From NCBI GenBank assembly GCA_947252645.1, contig CAMXWF010000003.1, forward strand, positions 65,974 to 129,973: DNA of 64,000 bases, read 5' to 3'. Numbering within the stretch: the first letter of the stretch is position 1; each line of letters opens with the position of its first letter. Position numbers and translations under genes: made by a program. Below are positions 6,090 to 63,154 of this stretch, in pieces. The stretch comes from an uncultured Bacteroidia bacterium. GTDB taxonomy: Bacteria; Bacteroidota; Bacteroidia; Bacteroidales; CAJPTX01. The notes beneath the pieces were generated by a model that did no database searches, was not told the DNA's origin, and saw only the letters and a list, made by a program, of their open reading frames with translations.

Positions 6090-6300
6090 TGGCCACGACT
6101 CCTCTGCTGGATGGGGCAGGTCTTCTGGCTCTCTCCGTCCCTAGGCTGGCCTTCCCACCCCTATGGCCCAAAGGCCGTAGCGCGGGGCAGTGGCATCGGT
6201 TAGCCCAGGGGGTACTAGTGTAGCTCGGAGATTACAGCTGCAGGCACAGCGCTGGCATCGCACCAGCTTCCCTTGCTCTCGGCACGCCTCCCGGCGCACG
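6090..6300 (-). promoter_or_regulatory. cobalamin (B12) riboswitch
   Basis: The minus strand reads AAGGGAAGCTGGTGCGATGCCAGCGCTGTGCCTGCAGCTGTAA ... GCCACTG ... GGGAAGGCC ... AGCCAGAAGACCTGCC (B12 box, 6115-6132). It lies between the -7 box and the receptor ATG. Confidence 0.88.
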
Positions 6301-6320
6301 TCGATACCCTCATCCGGGCG

Positions 6321-6328
6321 CAAAGGTA
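6321..6328 (-). promoter_or_regulatory. -7 promoter box (TACCTTTG) for the riboswitch/receptor operon
   Basis: TAnnTTTG consensus immediately upstream of the riboswitch. Confidence 0.65.
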
Positions 6329-27594: not shown

Positions 27595-28803
27595 TTAACG
27601 CTCCTGGAAACCCTCGCGCTCCAATGCAAAATGCCCCAGGAGCAAATAGAGCAACTGCAGCGCTACCCGGATGGACTCCACCCGCGGGGAAAAACCACTC
27701 GTATGGAGTGCCCCCGTAGGCCCCACCCCCAGCCGGACAAAGAGCGAGGGCATGGCCTGGGCAAAATAGGCAAAATCATCGGTGGTCATGCGAAAATCCA
27801 ACTCCCGGCACTCCTCCACCCGCGAGGCCCGGGCGCATAGCAGCCTGAAGACATCGGCCAAGGCCGCATCGTTGAACAGCGCCGGGTAGCCATCCTGTAT
27901 GCGAACCCCTATGGAGACTCCGTGCACCTTAGCCACGCCCTCCGCAATGGTGTGGATAAGGCCCTTGGCCTGGGCGCGCCAAGGCTCATCGTGCGTACGA
28001 AAAGTACCCTGCAGCAGCACCTCGTCGGGCACCACGTTGGTAGCCCCCGCAGCTATCAGACGGCCGATGGTGAGCACCGTGGGGATTTGCGCCGGGGCCA
28101 ACCTCCCCGACACCGCCTGCAGCTGGACCACCAAGTCGCAGGCTGCCTGCACCGGATCGGCCAGCCGCTCGGGCATGGCTGCGTGACCACCTCGACCCTT
28201 CACCGCTATATGCAACTCATCCCCACTGGCCATGTAGCGCCCCACACGCACGCCCACCGACCCCACGGGCAACATCGGCTCGCTATGGAAGCAAAGCATG
28301 CGGGCCGGCCTATGCTGTGCAAACAGCGTGCTCCCCAAGATGGCCTGCGCTCCCCCGGGCAAGACCTCCTCACTCGACTCAAAGACAAATAGCGGCACAA
28401 GCTCTGCCGGGCACGCCAGCAGGGCTAGCGCCTTGGCAAACCCCAAGGCGATCCCCACGTGGAGGTCATGGCCGCAGGCGTGCATGACGGCATCCACCGC
28501 GCTGCGCGGGGAAGCCCCCAAATCCTCCTGTATTGGCAGGGCATCGAGCTCGGCCCGCAAACCAAAAAGCGGATGCGCCCCTCCCTGGCGATAGGCCAAA
28601 AAACTCGTGCACTGCGGGATGGACTCCACCGTATAGCCCATACCGCGCAGCTCCCGCTGCAGACGCACGCTGGTGTCATATTCGCAGCCCGAGAGCTCTG
28701 GATGGCAATGGATGGCCCGGCGGACGGCGCAGCCATACTGGTAAGCCTCATCAAACAGGGGCTCCACCTCCTGCCAACCTGGCAAACTCACCGCGCACTC
28801 CAT
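27595..28803 (-). CDS. M20D-family amidohydrolase (N-acyl-amino-acid/hippurate hydrolase type)
   Basis: 402 aa with HCHPELSGCE and MHACGHD metal-site blocks. Confidence 0.8.
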   Translation of the reverse strand: MECAVSLPGWQEVEPLFDEAYQYGCAVRRAIHCHPELSGCEYDTSVRLQRELRGMGYTVESIPQCTSFLAYRQGGAHPLFGLRAELDALPIQEDLGASPRSAVDAVMHACGHDLHVGIALGFAKALALLACPAELVPLFVFESSEEVLPGGAQAILGSTLFAQHRPARMLCFHSEPMLPVGSVGVRVGRYMASGDELHIAVKGRGGHAAMPERLADPVQAACDLVVQLQAVSGRLAPAQIPTVLTIGRLIAAGATNVVPDEVLLQGTFRTHDEPWRAQAKGLIHTIAEGVAKVHGVSIGVRIQDGYPALFNDAALADVFRLLCARASRVEECRELDFRMTTDDFAYFAQAMPSLFVRLGVGPTGALHTSGFSPRVESIRVALQLLYLLLGHFALEREGFQER

Positions 28804-29984: not shown

Positions 29985-31274
29985 CTATAGGAAAAGCAGC
30001 GCAATGACTATGAATATCGGCAGCAGCACGATGAGGGAAAAATGCGTCATGTAGCGGAAGAAGGAGGGCATCTTGATGCCATTCTCCTCGGCAATGGACT
30101 TGACCATGAAGTTGGGGCCATTGCCTATGTAGGTAAGCGATCCAAACATCACGGCGCCCAAGCTGATAGCCGCCAAGAGATCCTGCGGAATACCCGCCAC
30201 CAGCGTGGCCCCCTCTGGCACGGGCAACCCCTTGGCCACTGCATGGAAAGCCAAGGCCGTAGGCGTGTTGTCCAAAAAGCCCGAAAGCGCCCCCGTGGCA
30301 AAGTAGAAATGCTTAGCACTCGTCAGCCCCAGCGAGGGCGCATGCTGCTGCAAATACTGCAGTGCCGGCACCATGGTGATGAAAATCCCAATAAACAGGC
30401 AGGCCACCTCGAGAATCGGCGCCCAGGAGAACTTATTGTCTATTCTCACCTGACGCCTGGTGGTCAAGAGCGACGCGATGATCATCAGCGCGATGAAGCC
30501 ATCACGAAGGAACTTCCAGTAGTTGTGCGCGCCCGCCATGAAGGGGAAGTAGTGCTCGTTGAGGAAAGCCACCGCCAGCACAATGCCCACCAGCCAGATG
30601 AAGTTGACCTTCCCCGTAATGCGCAGGGGCGTGCGCTCGGCCGCATCGCGCGCTAAGGCCTCCTTGGGCTCGCGACGATAGAGCCAGCTATCCCAAAGGA
30701 AGTAGACGACCAGCAACGTCACATTGAATAGCAACCACTCGGGCAGCAGGTGGAAAAACCAGCCGAACGGCGCACCGTAGAGGTAGAGCATGAACAGGGG
30801 CGGATCGCCCAGCGGCGTGAGCAATCCCCCGCAGTTGGCCACTACGGCAATGAAGAACAGCACGGTGTGCACCTTCTTCGTGCGCTCGCGGTTGGTCTCC
30901 AAGAGCGGCCGAATAAGCAGCATGGCAGCCCCCGTAGTGCCTATAAGCGAGGCCAGAACAGCCCCTATGCCCAAGATGGCCGTGTTGGTGGTGGGCTTGG
31001 CCAGCAAGTCACCACTCAGATGGATGCCCCCTGTCACTGCAAACAGCCCCAACAGCAGCACGATGAAGGGGATATAGTCGAAAACCACCTGGTGCGCCAC
31101 CGCCTCGCGAATATCAAAATAGCACGCAATGAGGCATGTGGGCACGGCCAGCAGCAGCGAAACCAGCAGCTTGTTGAGATTCGATTCCCACCACTTGCCC
31201 ACCAAGGCCGGCAGCAACGCAATGGCCAGCAGCATGAGGATGAAGGGAATTAATGTCCACGCTTGCAGCTCCAT
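29985..31274 (-). CDS. ArsB/NhaD-superfamily ion transporter (sodium:proton antiporter-like)
   Basis: 429 aa and polytopic (~11-12 TM segments), with the GGLLTPLGDPPLFM block typical of this permease family. Confidence 0.75.
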   Translation of the reverse strand: MELQAWTLIPFILMLLAIALLPALVGKWWESNLNKLLVSLLLAVPTCLIACYFDIREAVAHQVVFDYIPFIVLLLGLFAVTGGIHLSGDLLAKPTTNTAILGIGAVLASLIGTTGAAMLLIRPLLETNRERTKKVHTVLFFIAVVANCGGLLTPLGDPPLFMLYLYGAPFGWFFHLLPEWLLFNVTLLVVYFLWDSWLYRREPKEALARDAAERTPLRITGKVNFIWLVGIVLAVAFLNEHYFPFMAGAHNYWKFLRDGFIALMIIASLLTTRRQVRIDNKFSWAPILEVACLFIGIFITMVPALQYLQQHAPSLGLTSAKHFYFATGALSGFLDNTPTALAFHAVAKGLPVPEGATLVAGIPQDLLAAISLGAVMFGSLTYIGNGPNFMVKSIAEENGIKMPSFFRYMTHFSLIVLLPIFIVIALLFL

Positions 31275-33739: not shown

Positions 33740-33773
33740 AGTCGTTGTGACCCCACAATTTCAATTCCCGCAG

Positions 33774-33781
33774 CGAAGGTA
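33774..33781 (-). promoter_or_regulatory. -7-like promoter box (TACCTTCG) for rmuC
   Basis: 35 nt upstream of the rmuC ATG, with one mismatch to TAnnTTTG. Confidence 0.4.
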
Positions 33782-33935
33782 GAGAAAAACACCGGAGGAG
33801 GGCGCAGGACAAAGGACAGACCCCTGCGCACCAGGGCATCCGATGCAGGCGCCGACACCGTCAAGGGAGACATCGGGCCTGGCGCCATCTACACCACCCC
33901 ATCGCGGCACGCATGAGGCCTTGGGAAGGTCATCC

Positions 33936-34211
33936 TCAAGCCCAAGGAAATGGGGCCAGAAGGCCAAAGAGGCTCTGGGTATTCTGCGTGGGTCCCTCGA
34001 GTGGTACGACCAATGGATTAACTCTAGCCCCGATTAGGGTCCACTGGCTCACCTGGTTGACCTCGAGGGCATCCTGCAGGAGGGGGCGCAAGCTGCTGGT
34101 CTGCCAGCTGCCGGGGCTCGGCGTTCGCCACCAGGCGGGAGCGCCGCTGGTTGAAGCTTTGTGGGTAAAGCGCAGGCCGCGTGTCGCCAGAATGCTGGTG
34201 TGGTTGATCAT
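33936..34211 (-). CDS. hypothetical small protein (91 aa), possibly a gene remnant
   Basis: ATG ORF with strong C/G third-position bias in its first ~60 codons. A consensus -7 box (TATATTTG, 34239-34246) sits ~30 nt upstream. I recognised no family. Confidence 0.3.
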   Translation of the reverse strand: MINHTSILATRGLRFTHKASTSGAPAWWRTPSPGSWQTSSLRPLLQDALEVNQVSQWTLIGARVNPLVVPLEGPTQNTQSLFGLLAPFPWA

Positions 34212-34362
34212 GGTGAGGGAGGTGGGCTGGAGTCATACCAAATATACGTAGTAAGTATAGAGAATGGTTACTCGAGCGGTTGGGAAAGCGCATCGTTGGG
34301 GGAGGCAAGGCAGTTTTCCCCGTTGTCGGAGGGGGCGCAGGGCTTCGGGCAATAAATATGGC

Positions 34363-34370
34363 TAACTTTG
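34363..34370 (+). promoter_or_regulatory. -7 promoter box (TAACTTTG) for the aspartase gene
   Basis: TAnnTTTG consensus 59 nt upstream of the ATG at 34429. Confidence 0.6.
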
Positions 34371-34428
34371 CCACGTGGTGAGACGGTTTGGCGGCGAATA
34401 CTGGTATCGACAATAATACGGCATAAGT

Positions 34429-36285
34429 ATGAATAGGCAGCAGATCACGGATTTTTTGCGGAGTATCAAGCTGTTTGAATCCCTGAGCGAGCAGCAGCTG
34501 GAGGGCATAGCGGCCCATACGCAGGAGATGTCATTCCGGCAGGGCGACCTGCTCTTTGAGGAGAACAGCCCGCGCGAGGCCTTTTTTGTCATCGTGGAGG
34601 GGAGCGTGGAGCTCTACAAGAGCACGCCGCAGGGGGCCGAGACCAAATTCACCATATTCCACCGTGGAGACTTCCTGGGGGAGGGGTCGTGGGTGCCCAA
34701 TTCCACGCACTCGACCAACGCCAAGGCACTAGAGCCCACCAAGGTGATAGTGGTTGGGAAGGAGGCCCTGAACCGCGATGCGGACGCCACGCTGAAGGTG
34801 TTCTCCAACATCATCCAGGTGGTCTCGCAGCGCATGGGCTACTCGAACTCGATGCGCATACGCATGGGTCAGCAATACTTCTCTGGCAACACGCGCACCG
34901 AGCACGACCTGCTGGGGGAGCGTGAGGTGCCCGCCGAGAGCTACTACGGCGTGCAGACCCTACGGGCCACCGAGAACTTCATGATCTCGGGGGTGACGCT
35001 GAACTTCTACCCGCACATCATCCGCGGGCTAGCCCTGGTGAAAGCGGCGGCGGCGGAGGCCAACCACGCCCTGGGGCTGCTGCCCGATGCCGTCTACGAG
35101 GCCATTGAGGCGGCCTGCCAAGAGCTACTCGACGGCAAGCACTACTACAACTTCGTGGTCGACATGATCCAGGGCGGCGCAGGCACCTCCACCAACATGA
35201 ATGCCAACGAGGTGATAGCCAACCGGGCCCTAGAGATCATGGGGCACAAGAAGGGCGAATACCAGTACTGCCACCCCAACAACCACGTCAACTGCTCGCA
35301 GTCGACCAATGACTCCTACCCCACGGCCATGAAGCTCGGGGTCTACATGGCCAACAGGACGCTGGTCGATGTGCTCAAGCGCCTCTCGGATGCCTTCTCG
35401 TGCAAGGCCAAAGAGGTGGGCGATGTCATCAAGATGGGGCGCACACAGCTACAGGATGCCGTGCCCATGACCCTGGGGCAGGAGTTCCAGGGCTACGCCG
35501 ACCTGCTGGGCGGCGAGGTGCAGTCGCTAGAGCAGGCCGCCGACAAGCTCCTGGAGATCAACATGGGGGCCACGGCCATCGGGACGGGCATCAACTCCAC
35601 CCCGGGCTACGCCGAGAAGTGCGTGGCCGCCCTGGCCAAGCGCTCTGGCTTCAAGGTACACAACGCCAAAAACCTCATTCCCGCCACGTACGACCTAGGG
35701 GCCTTCCAGGCCTACTCCGCCGCCCTCAAGCAGCTGGCCGTGAAGCTCTCGAAGGTCTGCAACGACCTCCGCCTGCTCTCCTCAGGCCCGCGCTGCGGGC
35801 TCAACGAGATCAACCTGCCCCCACGCCAACCCGGCTCGACGATCATGCCCGGAAAGGTCAACCCGGTCATCCCCGAGGTGGTCACCATGACCTGCTTCAA
35901 GGCCATTGGCAACGACGTGACCGTCACCCTGGCGGCCGAGGCAGGACAGCTCGAGCTCAACGTGTTCGAACCCGTGGCCGTGCAAAGCATCTTCGAGACC
36001 GTAGAAATGCTCAAAAATGGCATGAAGACTCTCCAGTACCGCTGCGTGGAGGGGATCACCGTGAACCGCGAACGCTGCAAGCAGATGGTCTACAATAGCA
36101 TCGGCATCGTCACGGCCCTCAACCCCTACATCGGCTACGAGCGCTCCACCCAGGTGGCCAAGGAGGCCTTGGACACGCACGCCAGCGTGTACGACCTAGT
36201 GCTACAGAAAGGCTGGCTCTCGAAAGAAAAGCTCGACGACATCCTCTCCCCAGAGCACATGCTGCGCCCACGGGAGGTGAAGTAG
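34429..36285 (+). CDS. aspA: aspartate ammonia-lyase with N-terminal cyclic-nucleotide-binding-like domain
   Basis: 618 aa. Residues ~155-618 are aspartase/fumarase class II (GSTIMPGKVNPVIPEVV signature, SQSTNDSYPT). Residues 1-~145 have cNMP-binding-domain patterns (LFESLSEQQL...FRQGDLLFEEN...FFVIVEGSVELY...GDFLGEG). Confidence 0.85.
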   Translation: MNRQQITDFLRSIKLFESLSEQQLEGIAAHTQEMSFRQGDLLFEENSPREAFFVIVEGSVELYKSTPQGAETKFTIFHRGDFLGEGSWVPNSTHSTNAKALEPTKVIVVGKEALNRDADATLKVFSNIIQVVSQRMGYSNSMRIRMGQQYFSGNTRTEHDLLGEREVPAESYYGVQTLRATENFMISGVTLNFYPHIIRGLALVKAAAAEANHALGLLPDAVYEAIEAACQELLDGKHYYNFVVDMIQGGAGTSTNMNANEVIANRALEIMGHKKGEYQYCHPNNHVNCSQSTNDSYPTAMKLGVYMANRTLVDVLKRLSDAFSCKAKEVGDVIKMGRTQLQDAVPMTLGQEFQGYADLLGGEVQSLEQAADKLLEINMGATAIGTGINSTPGYAEKCVAALAKRSGFKVHNAKNLIPATYDLGAFQAYSAALKQLAVKLSKVCNDLRLLSSGPRCGLNEINLPPRQPGSTIMPGKVNPVIPEVVTMTCFKAIGNDVTVTLAAEAGQLELNVFEPVAVQSIFETVEMLKNGMKTLQYRCVEGITVNRERCKQMVYNSIGIVTALNPYIGYERSTQVAKEALDTHASVYDLVLQKGWLSKEKLDDILSPEHMLRPREVK

Positions 36286-37358: not shown

Positions 37359-39308
37359 ATGGTTAGAATCACACTGCCGGGCGGGGATCTGCGCGAGTAT
37401 AGCAGCCCCGTGACAGGGCTGCAGTTGGCCAAGGACATATCGCCGCGTTTGGGCCGCGAGGCCCTCTCGGTAACGGTCAACGGGGAGATCCACGACCTCG
37501 CGCGGCCGATAGCCGAAGACGCAGCCGTACACGTGAACACGTTTGCCGACCCCGAGGGGAAGCTGACCTATTGGCACTCCTCGGCGCACCTGCTGGCGCA
37601 GGCCCTCGAGGAGCTCTACCCTGGGGTCAGGTTTGGCATAGGGCCCGCCATCGACAACGGCTTTTACTACGATGTCGACCTTGGCGAGCGGACGCTCTCC
37701 GAGGAGGATCTCAAGGCGGTGGAGGCCCGCATGCGCGAGATTACCAAGCGCGCCGAGCCCATCACCCGGGAGGAGGTATCGAAGGCCGAGGCCTTGGCCG
37801 ATTTCCAGCAGAAGGGCGATCCCTACAAGGTGGAGCTGATAGAGGGGCTGGCCGATGGCACCATCACGTTCTACCGACAAGGCGGGTTTACGGACTTGTG
37901 CCGCGGCCCCCACTTGCCCAACACGGGCTACATCAAGGCCATCAAGCTACTGAGCGTGGCCGGAGCCTACTGGCGCGGCGATGAGCACAACAAGCAGCTC
38001 ACGCGCATCTATGGGATCACCTTCCCAAAGCAGGCCATGCTCGAGGAGTACCTCCAGATGCTCGAGGAGGCCAAGAAGCGCGACCACCGGAAAATCGGCC
38101 GGGAGATGGGGCTTTTTGCCTTCTCCTCGCGTGTGGGGCAGGGCCTGCCGCTCTGGCTCCCCAAGGGCACCATACTCCGAGACAACCTCGAGCGCTTCCT
38201 GCGCAAGGTGCAGCTGGACTACGGGTACAAGCAGGTGATCACCCCCCACATTGGGCAGAAGGAGCTCTACGTGACCTCGGGGCACTGGGCCAAGTATGGG
38301 CAGGATAGCTTCCGCCCCATCACCACGCCGCAGGAGGGCGAGGAGTTCCTTCTCAAGCCCATGAACTGCCCGCACCACTGCGAGATCTACCGGGCCGAGC
38401 CCAGAAGCTACCGCGACCTTCCCCTACGCCTAGCCGAATTCGGCACGGTGTACCGCTATGAGCAGTCGGGCGAGCTGCACGGGCTCACGCGCGTGCGCGG
38501 GTTTACGCAGGACGACGCGCACATCTTCTGCACCGAGGATCAGCTCAAGGGCGAGTTCCTCAAGGTGATCGACATCATCTTCTACATCTTCAACACGCTC
38601 AACTTCACGCAGTACGAGGCGCAGGTATCGCTGCGAGACCCCGAGAACAGGGACAAGTACATCGGCACCGATGAGAACTGGGCCCGGGCCGAGGGGGCAA
38701 TCATCGAGGCGGCCGCAGAGCGAGGCCTCAAGACCACAGAAGTCAAGGGGGAGGCAGCCTTCTACGGCCCCAAGCTGGACTTCATGGTGCGCGATGCCAT
38801 AGGGCGCAAGTGGCAGCTGGGCACAATCCAGGTGGACTACAACCTGCCCGAGCGCTTCGAGCTTGAGTACACCGGGGCCGACAACAAGCCGCACCGTCCC
38901 GTGATGATCCACCGGGCGCCGTTTGGCTCCATGGAGCGCTTTGTGGCCGTGCTCATAGAGCATACGGCGGGGCACTTCCCGCTGTGGCTCTCGCCCGATC
39001 AAGTCATCATTCTGCCCATCAGCGACCGCATGAACGACTACGCCAACCAGGTGCGCCAGCAGCTAACCAAGCGCAACTTCCGCGTGGAGCTGGACGAGCG
39101 CAGCGAGAAGATCGGCAAGAAGATCCGGGAGGCCGAGCTCCAGCACGTGCCCTACATCCTCGTGGTGGGCGAGCGGGAGATGCAGGAGGGGCAGGTGGCC
39201 GTGCGCGCGCGCGGCGGTGTTGACCTAGGCACCATGCGCGTGGAGCAATTCATCGAACGGCTCGAAACCGAGCTAGCCAACACGTTCAGCAAGCACGGGG
39301 AAGCCTAA
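37359..39308 (+). CDS. thrS: threonine--tRNA ligase
   Basis: 649 aa with TGS, editing, class II core ([36 protein letters not shown]) and anticodon-binding domains. Confidence 0.95.
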
Positions 39309-39368
39309 AAGCGCCCCGGGGAGGTCAACAGTATGCAGAACTTTTAATAGAGCGAGGGAGGGACAACT

Positions 39369-40028
39369 ATCGCAGACCAAAGGAATTATAGGCCGGGAGG
39401 GCGTCGCCCGTACGTACCGCACGCACAGCAGCCCGAGCACCAGATCAACGAAGCTATCCGGGCGCGCACCGTGCGCATAGTGGGCGACAACATCGGGGAG
39501 TCGCGCATAGTATCGCGCGAGGAGGCTCTCCGGGTGGCTCGGGATATGGAGCTGGACTTGGTGCTGATCGTGGAGCAGGCCGATCCTCCCGTGTGCCGCG
39601 TGGTGGACTATCAGAAATTCCTCTACCAGCAGCGACGGCGCGAAAAGGAACAAAAGTCGAAAGCCCAGAAGATCGTCATCAAGGAAATCCGCTTTGGCCC
39701 CTATACGGGAGAAAACGACTACCAGTTCAAGCTCCGCCATGCCCAGCAATTCTTGGCCGAGGGCGCCAAGGTGAAAGCCCAGGTGTTCTTCAAGGGGCGG
39801 GCCATCGTGTTTAAGGATCAAGGCGAGATGCTGCTGCTGCGGTTCGCGAAAGATCTGGGCGAGGTGGCAAAAGTGGAATCGCTCCCCACGCTCGAGGGCA
39901 AGCGCATGAATATGTTCTTGGTGCCCCTCAAGGAGCAGAAGAAAGCCAAGAAGAAAGAAGAGAAGACAGACCAGGAGCCTGGTAAGAATACAGGAGAGCA
40001 GGGAAATGCCAAAGATGAAGTCGAATAG
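39369..40028 (+). CDS. infC: translation initiation factor IF-3 (probable non-canonical start)
   Basis: The frame is open from 39351. The conserved [14 protein letters not shown] block lies upstream of the first ATG/GTG (39471), and the in-frame ATC at 39369 is the only near-cognate candidate. The rest is typical IF-3. Confidence 0.8.
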
Positions 40029-40200
40029 GGCGGCTATGAAGCGCTTCATAGTGTGCGGTTCGGGGCGGATCAAGCGTAAGCACGCCTACAAGAGCCATAT
40101 CCTGACGAAAAAGTCAACCAAGCGCAAGCGCAACCTCACCAAGGTAGCCGGCTTACACCGCCACAATATGGCCGTAGTGCGGGAGCTGATCTTGCGCTAG
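40006..40200 (+). CDS. rpmI: 50S ribosomal protein L35
   Basis: 64 aa starting [14 protein letters not shown]. It overlaps the infC 3' end by 23 nt. Confidence 0.93.
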
Positions 40201-40833: not shown

Positions 40834-42075
40834 CTAGTCGTGCGACCCTAGCATTGCGCGGTAGCCGCGCGCAAGGGCCTGGTCCAGCCAGGCATTGAAG
40901 GCGTGCAGGTGCTTTCTGTCGGGCGAGGCCGCGCCCCATTGGGCCATCATCTCGAGGGCCTTGGTGCGTATCTGCCCATCGAGGGCCTTGCGCTGGGGTT
41001 CAAGCCCCCCGTTGAGGCTGTTGCGGTAAACGGCCAGGTCCATGTAGCGTAGGCCGCTGCCCCGCGTAATGGGATACACACGGCGCATGAGCTGCAAGGC
41101 CGCATGCCCCAGCGGGGCCTCCAGGCCATCGGACGGAGAGGTGATTTGCTGCGGCAGGGTAGCAGCGTCAAGCGGCCAAGCGGGCACATGCACGCAGGTC
41201 AGCGGGAAGGCAATGGCGCACCAGAGGGTCGTACGGCTAGGGGCCTCGCCCGGGCCTACGGACTCTATGACTGCGTTGGAAGCAGAGCCGTAGCGGCAGA
41301 TGAAGTCAGAAGCGTTAACCATGTAGCCCGCAGCCTTGGTAGGGAGGGTCTGGTTGTAGCTATCGCCCGTGAGGGCGTTGGAGAGGTCGTGGGGTAGGCG
41401 GTCGGTAAAGAGCTCCAGGGAGAGCTTCCCTTGGCTGGCGGCTTGGGCCAGGATGCCCTCAGCGGTTTGTCGACGGATAAATCCGTAGCCCACGTTGGGC
41501 GTTCCCATCTCGGAGAAGTTGGTCCTGACGAGGTAGCCCTTTGGGGCCACGGCGGGGTCGTTGACGTCGTACTTGACGAAGTGGTAGTTGTCGGTTTCGT
41601 AGTACGCGGCGCCGCCTTCCGCATCCACGACACCAAAATTGGCATTCAGGCCCCAGGGCCGCGGGCGCGCGAGGAGCAAGGCCTCAAAGTCGGCCAGGGT
41701 GCGGCACTGCATGAGGGCCTGCTTCATGACGATGCCCTCCTGGTCGGCAAACTTGGTGGTGTCGCCCGGATTGGTGTTGAAGGAGGCCGAGTTCATGATG
41801 GCAAAGCCAGCCGCATTGCAGCCGGCCCACACCATGCGCTGGGCCGAGGAGTCGCAATTGACTAGGCCGATGTAGGCGTAGCGGCCGTCGGCAAAGAACT
41901 TGACCCTATTGCGGAGCGAGTCGGTGTCGCGCAGCTTCCAGAGCATCGCCCTACCCGACTTTGAGGCCTTGGCCGACACCACGGCCGTAGTGCAGGCCCA
42001 CGTGGAACCCACGGCCAGCGCGAAGAAAAGGCAAAGGGAAAAGGCGCACCGCGCGCACAATGTATAGTGTCTCAT
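40834..42075 (-). CDS. secreted Ntn-hydrolase-like protein (C45 / acyl-CoA:6-APA acyltransferase-like family)
   Basis: ATG at 42075 gives 413 aa. A signal peptide ends in ...STWA|CTTAVV, exposing a Cys as expected for an N-terminal-nucleophile hydrolase. Family assignment is from recall only. Confidence 0.5.
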   Translation of the reverse strand: MRHYTLCARCAFSLCLFFALAVGSTWACTTAVVSAKASKSGRAMLWKLRDTDSLRNRVKFFADGRYAYIGLVNCDSSAQRMVWAGCNAAGFAIMNSASFNTNPGDTTKFADQEGIVMKQALMQCRTLADFEALLLARPRPWGLNANFGVVDAEGGAAYYETDNYHFVKYDVNDPAVAPKGYLVRTNFSEMGTPNVGYGFIRRQTAEGILAQAASQGKLSLELFTDRLPHDLSNALTGDSYNQTLPTKAAGYMVNASDFICRYGSASNAVIESVGPGEAPSRTTLWCAIAFPLTCVHVPAWPLDAATLPQQITSPSDGLEAPLGHAALQLMRRVYPITRGSGLRYMDLAVYRNSLNGGLEPQRKALDGQIRTKALEMMAQWGAASPDRKHLHAFNAWLDQALARGYRAMLGSHD

Positions 42076-42186
42076 GGAATTGCTAGATTTAGCTGGCACC
42101 CAAAGCCCCATGGGCGCCTAGGTAAAGGTAAGCGTTTCGTGGCTAACCGCAGCCCGGGGCGGGGGGCTGAGGGTGGGAGGCTCGCT

Positions 42187-43204: not shown

Positions 43205-43368
43205 CGTAGCTACCAGTAGGCAGAGGCCAGTAGCAAGGCTAACCACTGGTGGTTGGGGACTAACTACGGCCGACCTGGCATGTGGCCTGAGGGTGCGGCT
43301 ATGACGCCATCGGTAGGAGAGCAAAATATCTAGAAGCGGGCATTCACGAAAGATAGATTTACTTGAAA

Positions 43369-44541
43369 ATGCACACGGAGCTACATACGGAGTGGACGGT
43401 AGGGGATGTATGCAAGGGCTTCACATACAACGAGCTGGAGGAGAAAGGGCTTTTTGGGCTCAATGGGCAGCTGACAATACAGCCGGAGTACCAGCGGCAC
43501 TACATATACAACGATGGTATGCGCGATGTGGCCGTGGTTGATTCCATCCTCCGGGGCTATCCGATAGGGCTACTCTACTTCAACTGCACGGCCGATGGGC
43601 GCTACGAGGTGCTCGATGGGCAGCAGCGGATCACCTCGATAGGCCGCTACGTGACAGGCAAATTCGCCATACAGGACGACCGTGGCAACGCACAGTACTT
43701 TCTAGGGCTTCCCGAGGCCCAGCAGCAGCTAATCCTCAGCACGCCGCTGCTCGTCTACGCGTGCAAGGGGGAGGAGAAGGAGATCAAGGAATGGTTTAAA
43801 ACGATAAACATCGTGGGAGTGCCGCTCAATGAGCAGGAGCTGCTCAATGCGATATATTCAGGGCCATTCGTGACGGCGGCAAAGCGCGTATTCAGCAACT
43901 CTGGGCGCGCCGAGATGCAAAAATGGCGGTACTACGTGCGGGGCGACGTGAAGCGGCAGGATTACCTTGCGCAGGCACTCGAGTGGGTGTGCGCCCGCAA
44001 CGGGGTAGACGTTGACCAATACATGAGCCTACATCGACGCGAGGAGAGCATTGAGGAGCTGGAGAACTATTTCACCACTGTAATTGATTGGGTGGCGGCC
44101 ATATTTAGCATGCTGGAGAACGATATGCGAGGCCTGGAGTGGGGGCGGCTCTACGAGCTGTATCACAACACCTCCTACAACGTAACGCGAGTGGCCGAAC
44201 GGGTAGAGGCACTGCGAAGCGACGAATGCGTGCGATGCCCTCGCAACGTCTATGAGTATGTGTTAGGCGGCGAGACGAATACGCAGCTGCTCGATATACG
44301 GGTGTTTGAAGAGTCGACAAAGAAAAAGGCGTACAAGCGGCAAACAGCCCAGGCCGAGGCGCAAGGGATCTCCAACTGCCCGCTCTGCGCAGCGGGCAAC
44401 AATGCCAACCGAACACGGATCTACAAGCTGTCGGAAATGGAAGCCGACCACGTGACGGCCTGGAGCAAGGGGGGCAACACGGAGCCAGAGAACTGCGAAA
44501 TGCTCTGCAAGACGCATAACCGGGCGAAGGGGAATAGATAG
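43369..44541 (+). CDS. DUF262 (ParB/Srx-like NTPase) domain protein with C-terminal HNH nuclease
   Basis: 390 aa from the ATG at 43369. The N-terminus has [10 protein letters not shown] and [14 protein letters not shown] (DGQQR motif). The C-terminus has CPLC...[31 protein letters not shown] (HNH). Confidence 0.8.
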
Positions 44542-44648
44542 AAGATGCGCGCACGCGCAGCCGCAGCGAGCGGGGCAAGTGGATTCCCCAGGATGCGCAG
44601 CGGCTGGTAACTGGCAACTGGCTCCTGTTCACTAACAACTAACTACGC

Positions 44649-45749
44649 ATGGCAAATCGTAACCTCAACGCCGCCAAGGCGGCCAAGAACGATGAGTTCT
44701 ACACGCAGTACCACGACATCGAGGAGGAGATGAACGCCTACCATGAGTACGACCGCAACGTGTTTCGCGACAAAACGGTGCTGCTCCCCTGCGACGACCC
44801 GGAGTGGAGCAACTTCACGCGGCATTTCGCCGCACGCTTTAGCGACCTGGGGCTGCGCCGGCTCATCAGCACGAGCTTTGCGCCGGAGAGCAAGACGTAC
44901 CGCGGGCCCTGGCAGCCCACGCTCTTCGAGACGCGCAGCCCGCGCTACGAGCCCACGAAGAGCCAGGTGCGCGGGAAGATCTTCATGCTAGACCGCGAGG
45001 CGCACGGCGCCGCGCGGGTGAACGTCGACGACCTCCAGTGGGACTACCTACAGGGCGATGGCGACTTCCGCAGCCCCGAGGTGACGCGACTGCGCGACGA
45101 GGCCGACATCATCATTACCAATCCCCCCTTCTCCCTCTTCCGGGAGTTCCTCGCGTGGATCGTGGAGGCGGGCAAGCGCTTTGCCATCATAGGCAACATG
45201 AACGCCATCACCTACAAAGAGGTCTTCCCGCTAATCAAGGAGAATAGAATATGGTTGGGGGCTACAGGAACGGGAAGCGACATGGTGTTTAGAGTACCAG
45301 AAGGAGTCACGGTTGACGAGAGGGATAAGGAGAAAGCCGCACGGATGGGATACGTTGGCAACTACACAAGGCTAGGCAACTCTTGCTGGTTTACCAACCT
45401 GGAGCATGGGCGGCGGCACGAGCCGCTGAAGCTAAACACCATGGCGGAGAACCTGCGGTACGTGCGGGCGCTGCAGGGCCGCAAGGCCTACGCGCGCTAC
45501 GACAACTACGATGCCATCGAGGTGCCAGCGACGGTGGCGATCCCGAGCGACTACGAGGGGGTGATGGGCGTGCCCATCTCGTTCCTGGATAAGTACTGCC
45601 CCGAGCAGTTCGAAATCCTGGGGGCATCAGAAAGCGAGGGGAAGGGATTCTCGAATGGTCTGTGGGTCTCTACAAGCGGCGTAGCCCAGCCGCTAGTGGC
45701 TGGGGAAAGGGTATACAAGCGGATATTCATAAAAAAGCGGGAAGATTAA
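44649..45749 (+). CDS. M.EcoRI-family N6-adenine DNA methyltransferase
   Basis: 366 aa with NDEFYTQ, GDGDFRS, the catalytic NPPF (IITNPPFSLFREF), ITYKEVFPLIKENRIWLG, YDNYDAIEV and GVMGVPISFLDKYCPEQFEI. It is colinear with M.EcoRI as I recall it. Confidence 0.85.
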   Translation: MANRNLNAAKAAKNDEFYTQYHDIEEEMNAYHEYDRNVFRDKTVLLPCDDPEWSNFTRHFAARFSDLGLRRLISTSFAPESKTYRGPWQPTLFETRSPRYEPTKSQVRGKIFMLDREAHGAARVNVDDLQWDYLQGDGDFRSPEVTRLRDEADIIITNPPFSLFREFLAWIVEAGKRFAIIGNMNAITYKEVFPLIKENRIWLGATGTGSDMVFRVPEGVTVDERDKEKAARMGYVGNYTRLGNSCWFTNLEHGRRHEPLKLNTMAENLRYVRALQGRKAYARYDNYDAIEVPATVAIPSDYEGVMGVPISFLDKYCPEQFEILGASESEGKGFSNGLWVSTSGVAQPLVAGERVYKRIFIKKRED

Positions 45750-45880: not shown

Positions 45881-45888
45881 TATCTTTG
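45881..45888 (+). promoter_or_regulatory. -7 promoter box (TATCTTTG) for the thi operon
   Basis: TAnnTTTG consensus a few nt upstream of the TPP riboswitch P1 helix. Confidence 0.6.
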
Positions 45889-45892
45889 CCTT

Positions 45893-45975
45893 GCTCTTAG
45901 GGGTGTCACGTGTGCGCGTGGCTGAGAAAAGACCCTCTGACCTGATCCAGTTCATACTGGCGTAGGCAAAGAGAG
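45893..45975 (+). promoter_or_regulatory. TPP (THI-box) riboswitch
   Basis: Reads GGGGTGTC...GGCTGAGA...ACCCTCTGACCTGATCCAGTTCATACTGGCGTAGGCAAAGAG. The P1 helix CTCTT/AAGAG closes the aptamer, ~90 nt upstream of thiS. Confidence 0.88.
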
Positions 45976-46061
45976 GCCGCCGAATGAAGGTGGCGATGTA
46001 GTCTAACTCCCAGGCCTCGTGCAGTGGTCCCCAGGGCGCTGGAAAGGGAGGGAGTGCGGCT

Positions 46062-46291: not shown

Positions 46292-48088
<1,797 letters not shown>

Positions 48089-48097
48089 CCCTGCAGC

Positions 48098-50146
48098 ATG
48101 ATAGTGGCCATATCCCCAAGTAGTTCGGCGGGGCGGTGGGTTGATAGTCTCAACGACCTTTTCCGTGCGGGACTCTCGCGCTTGCACCTTCGCTTCCCCC
48201 ACGCCGAGGACATGCAGGAGTATGCCCGGGTGATCCATCGGGTGGATGCGAATTTCCACAACCGCATCATGGTGTGTGCCTTCCCCGCGCTGCTGGACCA
48301 CTTCGACCTTGCGGGCCTGTACTACCGCGCCGCGGAGGCCCAGAAGCTCAGGCCCACAGACGTGGCGCACCTGCGCGCCTTCGCCGTGGGGGCCCACAGT
48401 CTCCAGGAGCTCCAGGCCCTACAGGTCTGCCCAAGCTATGCCCTGCTGAGCCCCGTGTTCGACAGCATCTCGAAGGAGGGCTACAAGGGCAACCCTGCCC
48501 TAGGCCACATCCGGCAGGGGCTACAGGCGCTCCCCTTCCCCGTTGTGGCGCTGGGCGGCATCAAGGCCAGTAACCAGGCTGCGGCCCTGGCCTTGGGCTA
48601 CGACGGGGTCGCCCTCATGGGGGGGCTCTGGCAGGGGGGGCTATCCCCCCTGGAGGCCTTTTCCCACTTTACGCGGCCCCGCGTGGTGTCGGTGGCAGGC
48701 CTCGACCCGTGCGCAGGCGCTGGGCTCCTGGCCGATGCCCGCACTGCGCAGGCACTGGATGCCGACTGCTACGCCATACCCTCGTGCCTGACCGTGCAAA
48801 ACCCAAAAGAGTTCGTAAGCGCAACGGCCACCTCTGGCGACTACCAAGCGCAAGCCCTACAGACGCTCCTGGAGACCCACCCAGCCAGCGTGGCCAAAAT
48901 CGGCATGATGCCCAGCCTGGAGTCGGTGCGCCAGACAGCCCAAAGGCTTAAGCACCACGGCATCAAGACTATCGTCTGGGATCCTGTTCTCCACGCCACG
49001 CACGCGCGCGGAGGGGAATCCCTACTGCAGAAAGGCCCCGCCCTAGAGGAGATACTCCATCTGGTTTCGTTGGTTACGCCGAATCGGGAGGAGTATGCGG
49101 CCCTATTTGGTGCGCTCGACGACGAGCACGGCGCGAAGACCCTCTCGCAGCAGCACCACTGCGCTATCTTGCTCAAGGGTGGGCACGACACCCGCGAGGC
49201 CAACCTAGTGACAAACATTCTCTTTCGCGAGGGCGAGGCACTGCGCTTCACGAGCCACCGATACGCCCACGAGGTCCACGGCTCTGGCTGCATGCTCAGC
49301 TCGGCCATTGCAGCCCTGGTAGCCCACGGGAATCCCCTGCCCGTAGCGGTGGAGAAAGCCCTGCACTACATGGAGGGAGTATTCCGACACCAGGGTGGCG
49401 CGAGCGCGTCGGCTCTGAGTGCCGTACGCATGCGCAGGAGCGTTGTGGCGCAGTGCGGGAGGCTGCAGTACATCACCAATAGTGCCGACGAGGCGACCAT
49501 TTTGGCCCACGCGCAGGCCTTCCTGGAGGGAGGCGGGCGCTGGGTGCAGCTTCGCATGAAGGAGGCCACTACGGCGCGCCGCATTGCGGTGGGGCTTAAG
49601 CTCCATGCGCTCTGCCAACACCACAACGCTGTGCTGGTGGTGGATGACGACCTGGAGGCCACCAAGGCCATCGGGGCAGAGGGCGTGCATATAGGCCCCA
49701 CCGATTGCTCCCCCCAGGCAGCCCGGCGGCTGCTGGGGCCTCACTACCTCATTGGCTACACGGTGAACGACTTGCCCAATTTGCAGGTGGCGGGCAGTTC
49801 ATCGGCCGACTACGTGGGCATAGGCCCCTACCGGTATACCACGACCAAGGCCAACCCGGCGGCCCCCCTAGGCCTCAAGAAGACGGCGCTGCTGGCAGAT
49901 ACCCTGGACGACCTTAGGGCTTCTGCCTGCGGCCACGCATCGTGCTACAAGGTGGCCATAGGGGGCATAGAGGTCAAAGACGTTGAGGCCCTGCTGGAGA
50001 GGGGCCATGTTGACGGGGTAGCCGTGAGCGGGGCCATTGCGCGAAGCCGGGACATACGGGCCACGACCCGCCAGCTGGTCGAGGCCCTCGCGGGCATCCC
50101 CCAGGAGGAAGAAAAGGAGGGCGTAGCGCCCCAAGTGGACGCGTAG
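48098..50146 (+). CDS. tri-domain thiamine protein: TenI/ThiE-like + ThiD (HMP-P kinase) + ThiE (thiamine-phosphate synthase)
   Basis: 682 aa. Residues ~1-190 are a TMP-synthase-fold domain. Residues ~200-450 are ThiD-like ([28 protein letters not shown]). Residues ~460-680 are ThiE-like (QLRMKEA..., [17 protein letters not shown]). Confidence 0.8.
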
Positions 50147-60771: not shown

Positions 60772-60805
60772 CGGGGTGTCGCCTGGCCTTGACCAACTCC
60801 AAGGC

Positions 60806-63154
60806 ATGCCACGAACCGCTAACACGCCAAGCATGCACACGCATAACCGACTCTGGCTCCAGCTTCTCTACCTGCTCACCGCTACGGCAGGAGCCATCAT
60901 GCTGGTGGTCTCGCTCCTCTTAGCCTCCACCAACCACGAACGCCTACTGCGCGAATCCTATAGCAACATCCAGCTCACCGCCCGCTTGGCCTCCCAGGAG
61001 GTCTACCTCCACTTTGAGCGCTACCTGGCCAGCATGCAATCGCTGGCCGCGGCCTTCCAGACCTACTACCTGCGCCCCGGATCCGTGTGGCAGCGCGACT
61101 ACCTTGAGGCCATGACGCAAGTGCTTGGGCAAAACCCCGACATGCTCTCCATATGGGACAGCTGGGAGTTCTACGCCATCAAACCCGGCTACTCCTTGCC
61201 CTACGGACGCCTGTCCAGGGCGGTATGGCGCGACTCGACCGGCGCACCCCAGCACGATGAAGCCAACCTGAGCCTCATGGGCGACCCAGAGCCCTACGCC
61301 AAGGCCAAGGCGCAGGGCGGCCCCATGCTCTGGGAGCCATACGTCGATGTCTCCTCCAACAACAGCAATCGAGGCCTCTACATGACGACCGTCTCGGCGC
61401 CCATCATGCACAACAACCGCTACGTGGGCCTAGTGGCCTGCGACCTCTCCCTCGACTGGCTCAACCATTTCCTCGACAGCATCACACCAACCCCCAACTG
61501 CACCAACTTCCTCCTCTCCAGCGACGCCCACATCGTTGCCTGCCACAATTCCAACCTACAGCAGGAGGGGCTGGAGGCTATCTTCCCCAACGAAGACGTA
61601 CGCAACAACATCCAGGAAAGCATCCTCCTAGGGCGAGAATACTCCTTCATCCACACCGACGCCGCAGGTAAGCGCTCCTACGTCTTCATCACCCCCATAG
61701 CCCAAAACCAACTCTTCGCCCCTTGGGCTATGGGCATCATCGAGCCCCTCGCCACCGTCACCACGCAGGCCGACCGCGGACTCCTGACCGCCCTGATCGC
61801 GCTGATCATCTCCATCGCAATAACCGCCGCCTGCTTCGCCGCTATCCTCCGCAACAGGCTGCGAGCCATGACGCCCATCCACGAGGCCTGCACCCGACTG
61901 GCCAACGGTCAGCCCGCAGACAACATCCCGCTCAAGTTCCGCACCTCCAACGAACTCAAAAGCATCGGGAAGAGCCTCATGCAAATCAGCAAGCAGCAGG
62001 GCGAACTCGTCCAGCAGCTCCAAGAACTCAACGCAGACCTCACAAAACAGCCCCTCGGGAAGGAAGGGGACAACCCCATCGCCCAAGCCATCGGAGCCCT
62101 GAAGTCCTACATGCTCTCCGTGCAGAAAGAAAATCAGGAAAAACGCCTAGACGGCGAAATGAAAGCCTGGATCAACGAGGGCATCTCGCAATGTAGCCTC
62201 ACCATCCGAAACAACGCCAACGACATTGAGACCCTCTGCGACCAGCTAACCCTGCAAATCACCCGCTACATCGGCGCCAACCAGGGCGCCTTTTACCTGC
62301 TCTGGCCACAGCAAGACCCCAAGGCCAGACCTTGCTACAAGCTACAAACCGCCTTTGCTTGGGAACGGAAACGACACCTCCACGACGAGTTCCCCCTCGG
62401 CGTCGGCCTGGTAGGCGCCTGCGCCATGGAGCGACAGCCCCTCTTCGTCACCGACCTCCCCGCAGACTTCCCCAAAATCCCCACAGGAGTCGGCGACTCC
62501 GCTCCACGATGCGCCCTACTCATCCCGCTTATCCACAAGGACACCGTGATCGGCGTGCTGGAGTTCACCGCGGTGGACATCCTACCCCCAAGAACCAAAA
62601 ACCTCCTCACCGAGCTGGCCCCCTCCATCGCCTCAAACATCGCAAGCGTAAAAGCCAATAGCCAAAACCACCAGCTCCTACAAAACGCCCTGAGCAACCA
62701 AGATAGACTCCAAAAGCTCAACCAGTCCATATCGCAGCGCGTCAACGACCTAGAGGAGTTCTCAAGCCAGCTCAAAACACAGCTCCAGGAAAGCCGCCAC
62801 GAAAACATCGTCCTGCACAATGCATTCTTCACCACGCAATACACCCCACGCGGCATCTTGACCGATGCCAGCGAAAACTACCTCACGCTGCTTAGAGTCC
62901 CCAAAGACGAAATCCTTGGCACCTACTTCTGCACCGACCTAGAGGTGCCTGGATGGACACGCCGACAATTCGATGAGTTCTGGTACAAAGTCATCAATAA
63001 GGGCCCACAAACCCTCGTGGTCTCCCTGGATATCCACGATGATGCCCCCCTACAGCTGCTCGAACGCTATATCCCCTTCTACGACAACGAGAAGGTAATT
63101 TGCCGCGTAGTCAAGTTCTCCACGCTGCTCAACCAACCCAACACACTAACCTAA
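60806..63154 (+). CDS. membrane sensor: TM - Cache-like periplasmic domain - TM - HAMP - coiled coil - GAF - coiled coil - PAS-like, no recognisable output domain
   Basis: ~782 aa (ATG at 60806 or 60833). Two TM helices flank ~280 aa with Cache-like patterns (YVGLVACDLSLDWL). HAMP follows TM2. The GAF block reads GANQGAFYLL...GVGLVGACAMERQPLFV...VIGVLEF. The C-terminal ~110 aa is PAS-like. Confidence 0.75.
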   Translation: MPRTANTPSMHTHNRLWLQLLYLLTATAGAIMLVVSLLLASTNHERLLRESYSNIQLTARLASQEVYLHFERYLASMQSLAAAFQTYYLRPGSVWQRDYLEAMTQVLGQNPDMLSIWDSWEFYAIKPGYSLPYGRLSRAVWRDSTGAPQHDEANLSLMGDPEPYAKAKAQGGPMLWEPYVDVSSNNSNRGLYMTTVSAPIMHNNRYVGLVACDLSLDWLNHFLDSITPTPNCTNFLLSSDAHIVACHNSNLQQEGLEAIFPNEDVRNNIQESILLGREYSFIHTDAAGKRSYVFITPIAQNQLFAPWAMGIIEPLATVTTQADRGLLTALIALIISIAITAACFAAILRNRLRAMTPIHEACTRLANGQPADNIPLKFRTSNELKSIGKSLMQISKQQGELVQQLQELNADLTKQPLGKEGDNPIAQAIGALKSYMLSVQKENQEKRLDGEMKAWINEGISQCSLTIRNNANDIETLCDQLTLQITRYIGANQGAFYLLWPQQDPKARPCYKLQTAFAWERKRHLHDEFPLGVGLVGACAMERQPLFVTDLPADFPKIPTGVGDSAPRCALLIPLIHKDTVIGVLEFTAVDILPPRTKNLLTELAPSIASNIASVKANSQNHQLLQNALSNQDRLQKLNQSISQRVNDLEEFSSQLKTQLQESRHENIVLHNAFFTTQYTPRGILTDASENYLTLLRVPKDEILGTYFCTDLEVPGWTRRQFDEFWYKVINKGPQTLVVSLDIHDDAPLQLLERYIPFYDNEKVICRVVKFSTLLNQPNTLT

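Follow-up and report, generated by a model that had tools for sequence, protein, structure and literature searches.

A cyclic-nucleotide-binding domain with a variant cassette fused to aspartate ammonia-lyase in Bacteroidales

We analysed a stretch of 64,000 nucleotides of contig CAMXWF010000003.1 from an uncultured Bacteroidia bacterium (the whole stretch is hereafter called the window), and found that one of its genes, at 34429..36285 (+), encodes an aspartate ammonia-lyase (aspartase) that is preceded in the same polypeptide by a domain of the cyclic-nucleotide-binding (CNB) fold. The phosphate-binding cassette of this domain carries His-Ser-Thr in place of the canonical Arg-containing motif. 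Within a large family, this gene is an ordinary member and not a one-off. Both domains, and CNB–enzyme fusions as a kind, are already known; what is new here is that the partner is a central-metabolism lyase, that the His-Ser-Thr cassette is found family-wide and that the family is so large. By analogy with known fusions, we consider it moderately probable that the N-terminal domain is a sensor for a small effector, nucleotide- or nucleoside-like, and exerts direct allosteric control of aspartate deamination within one polypeptide.

Domain organization of the fusion protein

The coding sequence of the CNB–aspartase fusion is complete, stop codon included, and in the open reading frame (ORF) listing of the window it is one unbroken ORF of 618 residues with an ATG start, to which domains were assigned using Pfam and NCBIfam. 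A preliminary description of this DNA had proposed a single uninterrupted ORF of this length, which the listing bore out, and had drawn attention to positions 34429-34890, corresponding to residues 1-154. All of the peptide motifs that it had quoted were found in the protein, at residues 15-28 (LFESLSEQQLEGIA), 36-46 (FRQGDLLFEEN), 52-63 (FFVIVEGSVELY), 80-86 (GDFLGEG), 90-100 (PNSTHSTNAKA) and 469-485 (GSTIMPGKVNPVIPEVV).

The catalytic region comprises Lyase_1 and FumaraseC_C and occupies residues 156-615 (34894..36273, +), as delimited by the TIGR00839 alignment. Pfam placed Lyase_1 at residues 163-494 (E = 2.1e-89) and FumaraseC_C at residues 560-612, both above curated cut-offs. The NCBIfam models TIGR00839 (aspA) and PRK12273 were passed with 695.0 bits against a cut-off of 681.2 and 726.5 bits against a cut-off of 510 respectively, whereas fumC_II failed with 480 bits against 664.75. 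Because TIGR00839 scored above and fumC_II below its cut-off, the enzyme was assigned as an aspartase and not a fumarase. Residues 152-614 aligned without large gaps with residues 2-465 of E. coli AspA (1JSW; 57% identity), and residues 153-615 with residues 10-472 of the Elizabethkingia aspartase (6WNG; 63% identity). A Foldseek search using the AlphaFold2 (AF2) model returned aspartases first (6WNG, 63%; 1JSW, 57%; Bacillus AspB, 49% identity) and fumarases next (~40%), with a target-normalised TM-score of 0.85 to a solved aspartase. The earlier proposal that the last ~465 residues are a standard aspartase, nearer to aspartase than to fumarase C, is thus in agreement with the NCBIfam scores, the Foldseek ranking and the alignments to 1JSW and 6WNG.

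The SS-loop signature G469-S-T-I-M-P-G-K-V-N-P479 (35833..35865, +), read from the sequence and containing the catalytic serine S470, aligned with GSSIMPxKVNP of 6WNG and 1JSW. S470, the first serine of the loop, was invariant across 108 homologues; position 471 is Thr in the window protein and Ser in at least 90% of the same homologues. The TSTNMNANEV, SQSTND and MGRTQLQDAVPMTLGQEF motifs were intact, the latter two aligning with 1JSW and 6WNG, and the pair of motifs used to recognise the aspartase type (GRTQLQDAVPMTLGQEF and SQSTND) was present. Judged from its sequence, the protein is a catalytically intact aspartate ammonia-lyase and showed no sign of being a pseudo-enzyme. The characterised aspartases (AspA/AspB; 1JSW, Bacillus sp. 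YM55-1 1J3U/3R6V, 6WNG), with which residues ~152-615 align end to end at 57-63% identity, are ~460-480 residues long and have no N-terminal sensor domain, whereas the window protein has ~150 extra residues consisting of a CNB fold and a helix.

The N-terminal domain adopts a CNB fold

Residues 1-117 (34429..34779, +) make up the CNB-fold domain, with N-terminal helices and an eight-stranded β-barrel, as delimited using Pfam, AF2 and Foldseek. The first ~145 residues had been described as following the cNMP-binding (cyclic nucleoside monophosphate-binding) pattern, and a Pfam check had been proposed, with failure of hidden Markov models (HMMs) to recognise the domain counting against the assignment. 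Pfam did recognise it: cNMP_binding (PF00027) was matched at residues 34-115 with E = 8.8e-18 and 64.5 bits, well above the cut-off of 27.5. When a profile of 20 N-terminal domains was searched against the PDB, matches to PKG, PKA, CRP-family regulators and Bd1971 were obtained with E values from 1e-27 to 1e-9, the best of which (to 1e-27) were to PKG and PKA domains. The AF2 model of residues 1-157 (mean pLDDT 84.4) showed helices at the N-terminus, a barrel of eight strands and, at residues 118-149, a long helix. In Foldseek, the N-domain model matched CNB-B of PKG (4KU7, 5J48) with a root mean square deviation of 1.5-2.2 Å over ~115 residues and a probability of 1.00; M. tuberculosis CRP, GlxR and others were also matched with a probability of 1.00, and 6H4G (trypanosomatid PKA) was among the matches. 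Taken together, the HMM match, the PDB profile search and the predicted structure with its Foldseek matches identify the N-terminal domain as a genuine CNB fold.

The barrel is linked to the enzyme by a long α-B/α-C helix (residues 118-149; 34780..34875, +), assigned from the AF2 secondary structure, in which K123, N127, R135 and M136 are conserved. The helix is followed by a junction that was defined by conservation and is specific to the fusion family, Y-x-S-G-x-T-R (residues 150-157; 34876..34899, +). Its residues Y150, S152, G153, T155 and R156 are invariant or almost invariant, and the sequence continues into the start of the aspartase fold.

The CRP/FNR regulators (CRP, GlxR, M. tuberculosis CRP, FtrB, Fnr and DNR) were among the best structural and sequence matches to the barrel with its long C-helix. 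However, these regulators end in a helix-turn-helix, whereas the C-helix of the fusion runs into the enzyme instead. No helix-turn-helix family of Pfam or NCBIfam was matched in the fusion protein, and the NCBIfam scores for CRP, Fnr, FtrB and FixK were all far under their cut-offs.

A layout of N-terminal CNB domain, helix and catalytic domain is shared with the cAMP-regulated mycobacterial acetyltransferase Pat (Rv0998/MSMEG_5458) and with Bd1971, an EAL phosphodiesterase of Bdellovibrio that is activated by cAMP, in which the N-terminal CNB domain controls the catalytic domain, and these two proteins serve as a model for how the fusion probably works. The CNB domains are homologous (NCBIfam Pat match, E = 1.1e-5; Bd1971 PDB matches, E ~1e-10), and encapsulin 2B families were also among the NCBIfam matches. 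The catalytic partners of Pat and Bd1971 are unrelated to aspartase, while the partner here is a central-metabolism lyase of a class that is normally tetrameric. The kinship is therefore one of architectural class and not of a homologous family.

The sensor domain is translated and under purifying selection

Next, we considered whether the N-terminal part is really made. For 18 moderately diverged species pairs, the median dN/dS (ratio of non-synonymous to synonymous substitution rates) was 0.048 for the sensor, where the highest value was 0.126, and 0.037 for the catalytic part; purifying selection acts on the sensor domain with about the same strength as on the enzyme. A single ORF of ~619 residues was present at 81/81 loci examined. 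A second strain (Logan run ERR12873868, locus L082) encodes an identical protein; the two genes differ at 15 positions, three of which fall in the sensor region, and every difference is synonymous. The 689-nt spacer upstream contains 24 differences between the same two strains. The low dN/dS, the single ORF at every locus and the synonymous-only strain differences leave little doubt that the N-terminal part is translated. The preliminary description had named a translation start near residue ~150 as an outcome that would speak against a fusion, and the same three results point away from such a start.

A start at an internal Met (M136, M142 or M146; M143 in many relatives) would give a normal aspartase of ~475 residues and no fusion protein at all. 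Such a start would fit with the NCBI records, which give 477-484-residue 'aspartate ammonia-lyase' products for relatives, and with the conservation of M136, which lies within the C-helix, in 72/74 species. However, conservation is missing at M142 and M146, the first Met of the protein lines up across the whole family, and the short calls at three loci (L053, L025 and L081) sit on intact longer ORFs with a complete in-frame CNB domain and no stop. The N-domain dN/dS and the purely synonymous strain differences speak against it as well, and we regard the loss of the fusion protein to an internal start as extremely unlikely. An additional short isoform may be made besides the fusion protein.

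Distribution of the fusion family

With the whole protein as query, the best 120 clusters (61-70% identity) all carried the three Pfam domains. With the catalytic part alone as query, the best 120 were again fusions, save 14 shorter entries. Most of these (11/14) are 477-484 residues long and start at an internal Met within the fusion-specific helix/junction sequence. P0284, with 477 residues and on a contig whose length (2961) equals that of L047, is another of the 14, and P0275 (532 residues) has its start inside the binding cassette, making it a truncated fusion. P0272 (550 residues) was considered as a close unfused relative and rejected: it has the start of an unfused aspartase, its score was inflated by an internal duplication and it is probably an assembly error.

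The apparent 'unfused close relatives' of 477-484 residues were likewise dismissed as internal-start calls. At Tenuifilum osseticum GCA_041102575.1 (L081:2575-4434), L053 and L025, the NCBI start is at an internal Met (477 residues) and the in-frame CNB domain is left unannotated in an 'intergenic' gap of ~600 nt. For these three loci the short entries are start-codon truncations by the annotation pipeline, seen directly. The remaining entries of 477-484 residues look like truncations of the same kind, because each begins inside fusion-specific sequence. Surveys built on such internal-Met annotations would overlook the fusion.

With each GTDB species represented by a single genome, a scan showed that at least 308 species encode the fusion domain; this is a minimum, since divergent subgroups escape the two search patterns. 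The phyletic survey proposed in the preliminary description thus placed the fusion almost entirely in Bacteroidales/Bacteroidia: the 80 loci kept were nearly all labelled as such (Rikenellaceae, Prolixibacteraceae, Lentimicrobiaceae and Tenuifilaceae), and Tenuifilum osseticum and Perlabentimonas gracilis are cultured members. Three of the 80 loci bear other phylum labels; mis-binning is likely for L029, because its N-domain is 95% identical to that of a Bacteroidetes-labelled metagenome-assembled genome (MAG). The closest relatives of the window protein, with 59-66% identity in the sensor domain, include two human oral MAGs as well as 'Candidatus [Bacteroides] periocalifornicus', followed by two dolphin oral MAGs at 54-55%. 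An exhaustive profile search with the N-domain brought up fragments of the same fusion and some divergent subgroups but no further fusion partner; this search was swamped by multi-CNB proteins with summed scores and gave no usable count of the family. After 50% clustering, the full-length fusion was not represented by a sequence of ~619 residues.

A full-text search of a literature library returned no paper pairing aspartase with a cyclic-nucleotide-binding domain, and the source databases name the fusion proteins plainly 'aspartate ammonia-lyase'. The family of CNB–aspartase fusions thus appears to be undescribed, and to this extent the novelty suggested earlier holds. As an unusual form of the enzyme it does not, as the fusion is the normal form of an aspartase lineage in many Bacteroidales families and at least 308 species.

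The variant cassette and its possible ligands

The variant phosphate-binding cassette spans residues 84-100 (GEGSWVPNSTHSTNAKA; 34678..34728, +), with the His94 codon at 34708-34710, as located by HMM alignment to PKG and PKA. In this alignment, G199-E200-L201-A202...R209-A210-A211 of PKA RI-alpha corresponds to G84-E85-G86-S87...H94-S95-T96. The ribose-contacting Gly84-Glu85 is retained, and the canonical Arg-[Ser/Thr/Ala]-Ala is replaced by His94-Ser95-Thr96, with A211 becoming Thr. Profile alignment to PKG, PKA and CRP structures showed that the cassette Arg is absent and that His94 occupies its position. G84, E85, G86, H94, S95 and T96 were invariant in 74/74 species and also in 108 homologue clusters, and F43, E45, R49, E71 and R135 were likewise invariant in 74/74 species. 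The cassette had been noted from the start to lack Arg-Ser/Thr-Ala, an observation that both the profile alignment and the 74 species confirm. In more divergent subgroups of the fusion, four residues are inserted and PHSTSA is again found; rare members have Tyr or Gln at the His position, and the fragment P0182, from a divergent family member, has the fully canonical cassette GESAL...PRTT. On the sequence evidence, membership of the fold holds and the cNMP-binding signature does not.

A comparable combination, with the ribose-binding Gly-Glu kept and the phosphate-binding Arg lost, is found in the regulatory subunit of trypanosomatid PKA (PMC10959531). In that protein, a eukaryotic kinase regulator and not a fused enzyme, the Ala two residues after the Glu is replaced by Glu and the Arg by Thr or Asn, whereas the fusion has Ser87 and His94 at these positions. 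In trypanosomatid PKA, polar residues stand in place of the cassette Arg; the ligands are inosine, guanosine or adenosine, bound with nanomolar affinity, and responsiveness to cAMP has been lost (PMC10959531). The cassette Arg of PKA neutralises the phosphate charge and hydrogen-bonds the exocyclic oxygens, and the Gly-Glu pair contacts ribose in cNMP- and nucleoside-binding domains alike (PMC10959531). The retention of Gly-Glu in the fusion suggests a ribose-containing ligand (nucleotide or nucleoside), and the invariant replacement of the Arg by His and of the Ala by Thr argues against canonical high-affinity binding of cAMP or cGMP. Thus the ligand is probably not bound in the canonical cAMP/cGMP manner, and, as the cassette is His-Ser-Thr and not Arg-x-Ala, the cAMP dependence of Pat and Bd1971 cannot be assumed for the fusion. 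More specifically, and as a tentative proposal that may well turn out to be wrong, the His-Ser-Thr cassette could mark a ligand-switched CNB domain through which a nucleoside, a non-cyclic nucleotide or another metabolite gates aspartase in hundreds of Bacteroidales.

If His94 took over the phosphate contact of the Arg, the domain would be a canonical cAMP/cGMP sensor and the messenger would switch the aspartase. Transcription of E. coli aspA is under CRP-cAMP control, and such a sensor would mirror this control post-translationally. The strong Pfam cNMP_binding match, the retained Gly84-Glu85 and Ser95 and a cassette length as in PKA/PKG are all consistent with a canonical sensor, and the canonical cassette GESAL...PRTT of P0182 makes a cNMP-binding ancestor or relative plausible. 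On the other hand, the Arg is His and the following Ala is Thr in all 74 species, and the same Arg is polar-substituted in the cAMP-unresponsive trypanosomatid PKA (PMC10959531). Class III cyclase genes do adjoin the fusion gene in a Tenuifilaceae-type clade, but in that clade only, and no nucleotide cyclase was found in the 64-kb window, the remainder of which is housekeeping chromosome. We therefore think a canonical cAMP/cGMP sensor unlikely.

It is distinctly unlikely that the barrel has been re-used to sense a non-nucleotide metabolite from among the carboxylates, for instance 2-oxoglutarate, fumarate, malate or aspartate. NtcA, a member of the CRP/FNR family, binds 2-oxoglutarate, and PII proteins sense the same compound. 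R49, H94, T96, R135 and R/K99 of the fusion, which are absent or placed otherwise in canonical CNB domains, could hold carboxylates. However, the Gly-Glu pair is generally lost in CRP/FNR members with non-nucleotide ligands (NtcA, FNR, CooA and CprK), which counts against carboxylate binding here. The Gly-Glu pair that is invariant in the fusion is a ribose contact (PMC10959531). In favour of a carboxylate, GlnB, a PII nitrogen-signalling protein, is an interaction partner of E. coli aspartase according to Schubert et al. 2021, as cited in PMC10634366. Carboxylate sensing, if true, would amount to feedback or feed-forward control by carbon/nitrogen status.

A domain that binds no exchangeable ligand, acting as a structural, oligomerization or autoinhibitory element or holding an 'intrinsic ligand' as in KCNH channels, would accommodate both the missing cassette Arg and the long C-helix, which resembles the dimerization helix of the CRP type. 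Yet G84, E85, G86, H94, S95 and T96 are strictly conserved within a canonical pocket-forming cassette, and the sensor dN/dS is as low as that of the catalytic domain. As the conserved cassette and the low dN/dS lead us to expect a working pocket rather than a scaffold, a ligand-free module has little chance of being correct.

Proposed mechanism and its weighing

Direct allosteric control by the CNB sensor would operate as follows. Translation from the ATG at 34429 produces one chain containing the CNB domain, the long C-helix, the conserved junction and a complete aspartase. A small effector would bind in the CNB barrel, and its binding would shift the B/C helix and the Y150-x-S-G-x-T-R junction; the signal would then reach the N-terminal domain of the enzyme just past the junction, where activity would be switched or tuned. 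The physiological role would be post-translational gating of the reaction L-aspartate <-> fumarate + NH4+, which in anaerobic Bacteroidales supplies fumarate for fumarate respiration and releases ammonia. A role of aspartase in fumarate respiration has been described (PMC10634366).

Several observations weigh against allosteric control by a nucleotide- or nucleoside-like effector. The allostery is proposed from the architecture, and the AF2 confidence is low at residues ~137-187, around the junction through which the coupling would run. His at the cassette Arg position is not unique to the family, as it was also found in 56/476 other CNB domains, a set biased toward similarity to the family. 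Comparison of 81 loci revealed no functionally linked neighbour that is conserved family-wide, and the vicinity of a cyclase gene is limited to one clade, consisting of 8 loci that are 79-100% identical mutually, plus Tenuifilum.

His at the cassette Arg position is thus a recurring, unstudied flavour of the CNB domain. An uncharacterised class of proteins (P0146, P0157, P0186, P0160 and others) of ~850-1080 residues contains four CNB domains and nothing else recognisable, and several of these domains likewise carry His for the cassette Arg. When eight multi-CNB proteins carrying His-type cassettes were scanned with Pfam, only CNB domains were found, so no clue to the ligand was obtained from them.

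In anaerobes, aspartase connects the breakdown of amino acids with fumarate respiration and with the supply of ammonia, and a sensor fused to it would, if the proposed control is real, allow fast control without transcription. The CNB domain class is familiar mainly from kinases, ion channels and transcription factors. Should the variant cassette be a ligand switch, hundreds of anaerobic Bacteroidales, including lineages of the human mouth, would gate a central step of amino-acid fermentation by a previously unknown signal that acts on the enzyme itself; no enzyme of central metabolism would have been known before to be under CNB control, and no bacterial ligand switch of such a kind. Small-molecule signalling in Bacteroidales is poorly understood, and a strictly conserved, non-canonical site could lead to an effector and a regulatory logic that are both new.

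Promoter box and gene neighbourhood

A putative promoter box, TAACTTTG, is present at 34363..34370 (+); it matches TAnnTTTG, the -7 promoter element of Bacteroidota, and ends 59 nt before the ATG. The window contains 27 copies of TAnnTTTG against 11.8 expected, and 0/100 shuffles attained 27. The copies are mostly TACCTTTG and typically lie 10-60 nt upstream of ORF starts in the window, which makes the motif usable as a promoter marker in the source genome. The consensus box that had been reported 59 nt before the start was thus found, and a promoter role for it is plausible: a single match agrees with a promoter and is no proof of one. A scan for sigma-70 promoters gave one weak match (9/12 positions), no better than chance, and was set aside, the Bacteroidota-type motif being the relevant one.

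In the window, the fusion gene lies between RmuC, which is divergent and located beyond a spacer of ~690 nt, and Era plus ThrRS. At 33 loci a trypsin-like gene is located 184 nt upstream of the fusion gene. In the Tenuifilaceae-type clade (L020, L025, L028, L035, L053, L054, L056, L063 and L081), the fusion gene is followed first by a cytidine deaminase gene and next by a response-regulator/PAS/class III cyclase gene in convergent orientation, the latter ~0.6-0.7 kb downstream of the fusion gene where measured. Inference of function from operons was dropped, since the trypsin-like, cytidine-deaminase and cyclase neighbours track phylogeny. The cyclase adjacency may be plain synteny, and the cyclase neighbours show only that some hosts encode cyclases.

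The spacer between RmuC and the fusion gene (33740-34428) is unusually long. It had no Rfam match at the gathering threshold and no similarity to any related locus except that of the second strain. Within it, a TATATTTG box at 34239-34246 (-) is located 28 nt ahead of an ORF of 91 residues at 33936-34211 (-), which is a gene call in the Logan assembly, has no Pfam family and is of odd composition.

Other features of the window

A gene for a CitMHS_2-type carboxylate transporter, 29985-31274 (-), and one for an M20 peptidase, 27595-28803 (-), are located 3-7 kb upstream of the aspartase gene, and a tie of the two to dicarboxylate or amino-acid supply is speculative. Two ORFs, at 40834-42111 (-), with 425 residues, and at 39273-40073 (-), with 266 residues, had no Pfam match; the latter, overlapping with the end of the ThrRS gene, may be a spurious call. 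A 792-residue protein encoded at 60776-63154 (+) contains dCache and GAF domains, and its last ~170 residues (~623-792), which had no Pfam match at E <= 0.01, may be an unrecognised output domain.

The G+C content of the window is ~60%, with a dip to 0.56 at 42-44 kb compared with ~0.61 elsewhere. A GmrSD_N plus HNH nuclease-like gene at 43363-44541 (+) adjoins an EcoRI-type adenine methyltransferase gene at 44649-45749 (+), and 43363-45749 is possibly a small acquired restriction/defence islet. Two riboswitches were also detected. Upstream of the genes for a TonB-dependent receptor, 3884-6067 (-), and for a cobalt chelatase of the CbiK type, 2825-3859 (-), there is a cobalamin riboswitch (RF00174, 68.5 bits) at 6098-6327 (-), with a TAnnTTTG box at 6321-6328. 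A thiamine pyrophosphate (TPP) riboswitch (RF00059, 66.5 bits) at 45889-45985 (+) directly follows a TAnnTTTG box at 45881-45888, and behind it lies a thiamine operon comprising thiC (46307-48088), a thiD/thiE fusion (48098-50146), thiG, a thiH-like gene and thiF.

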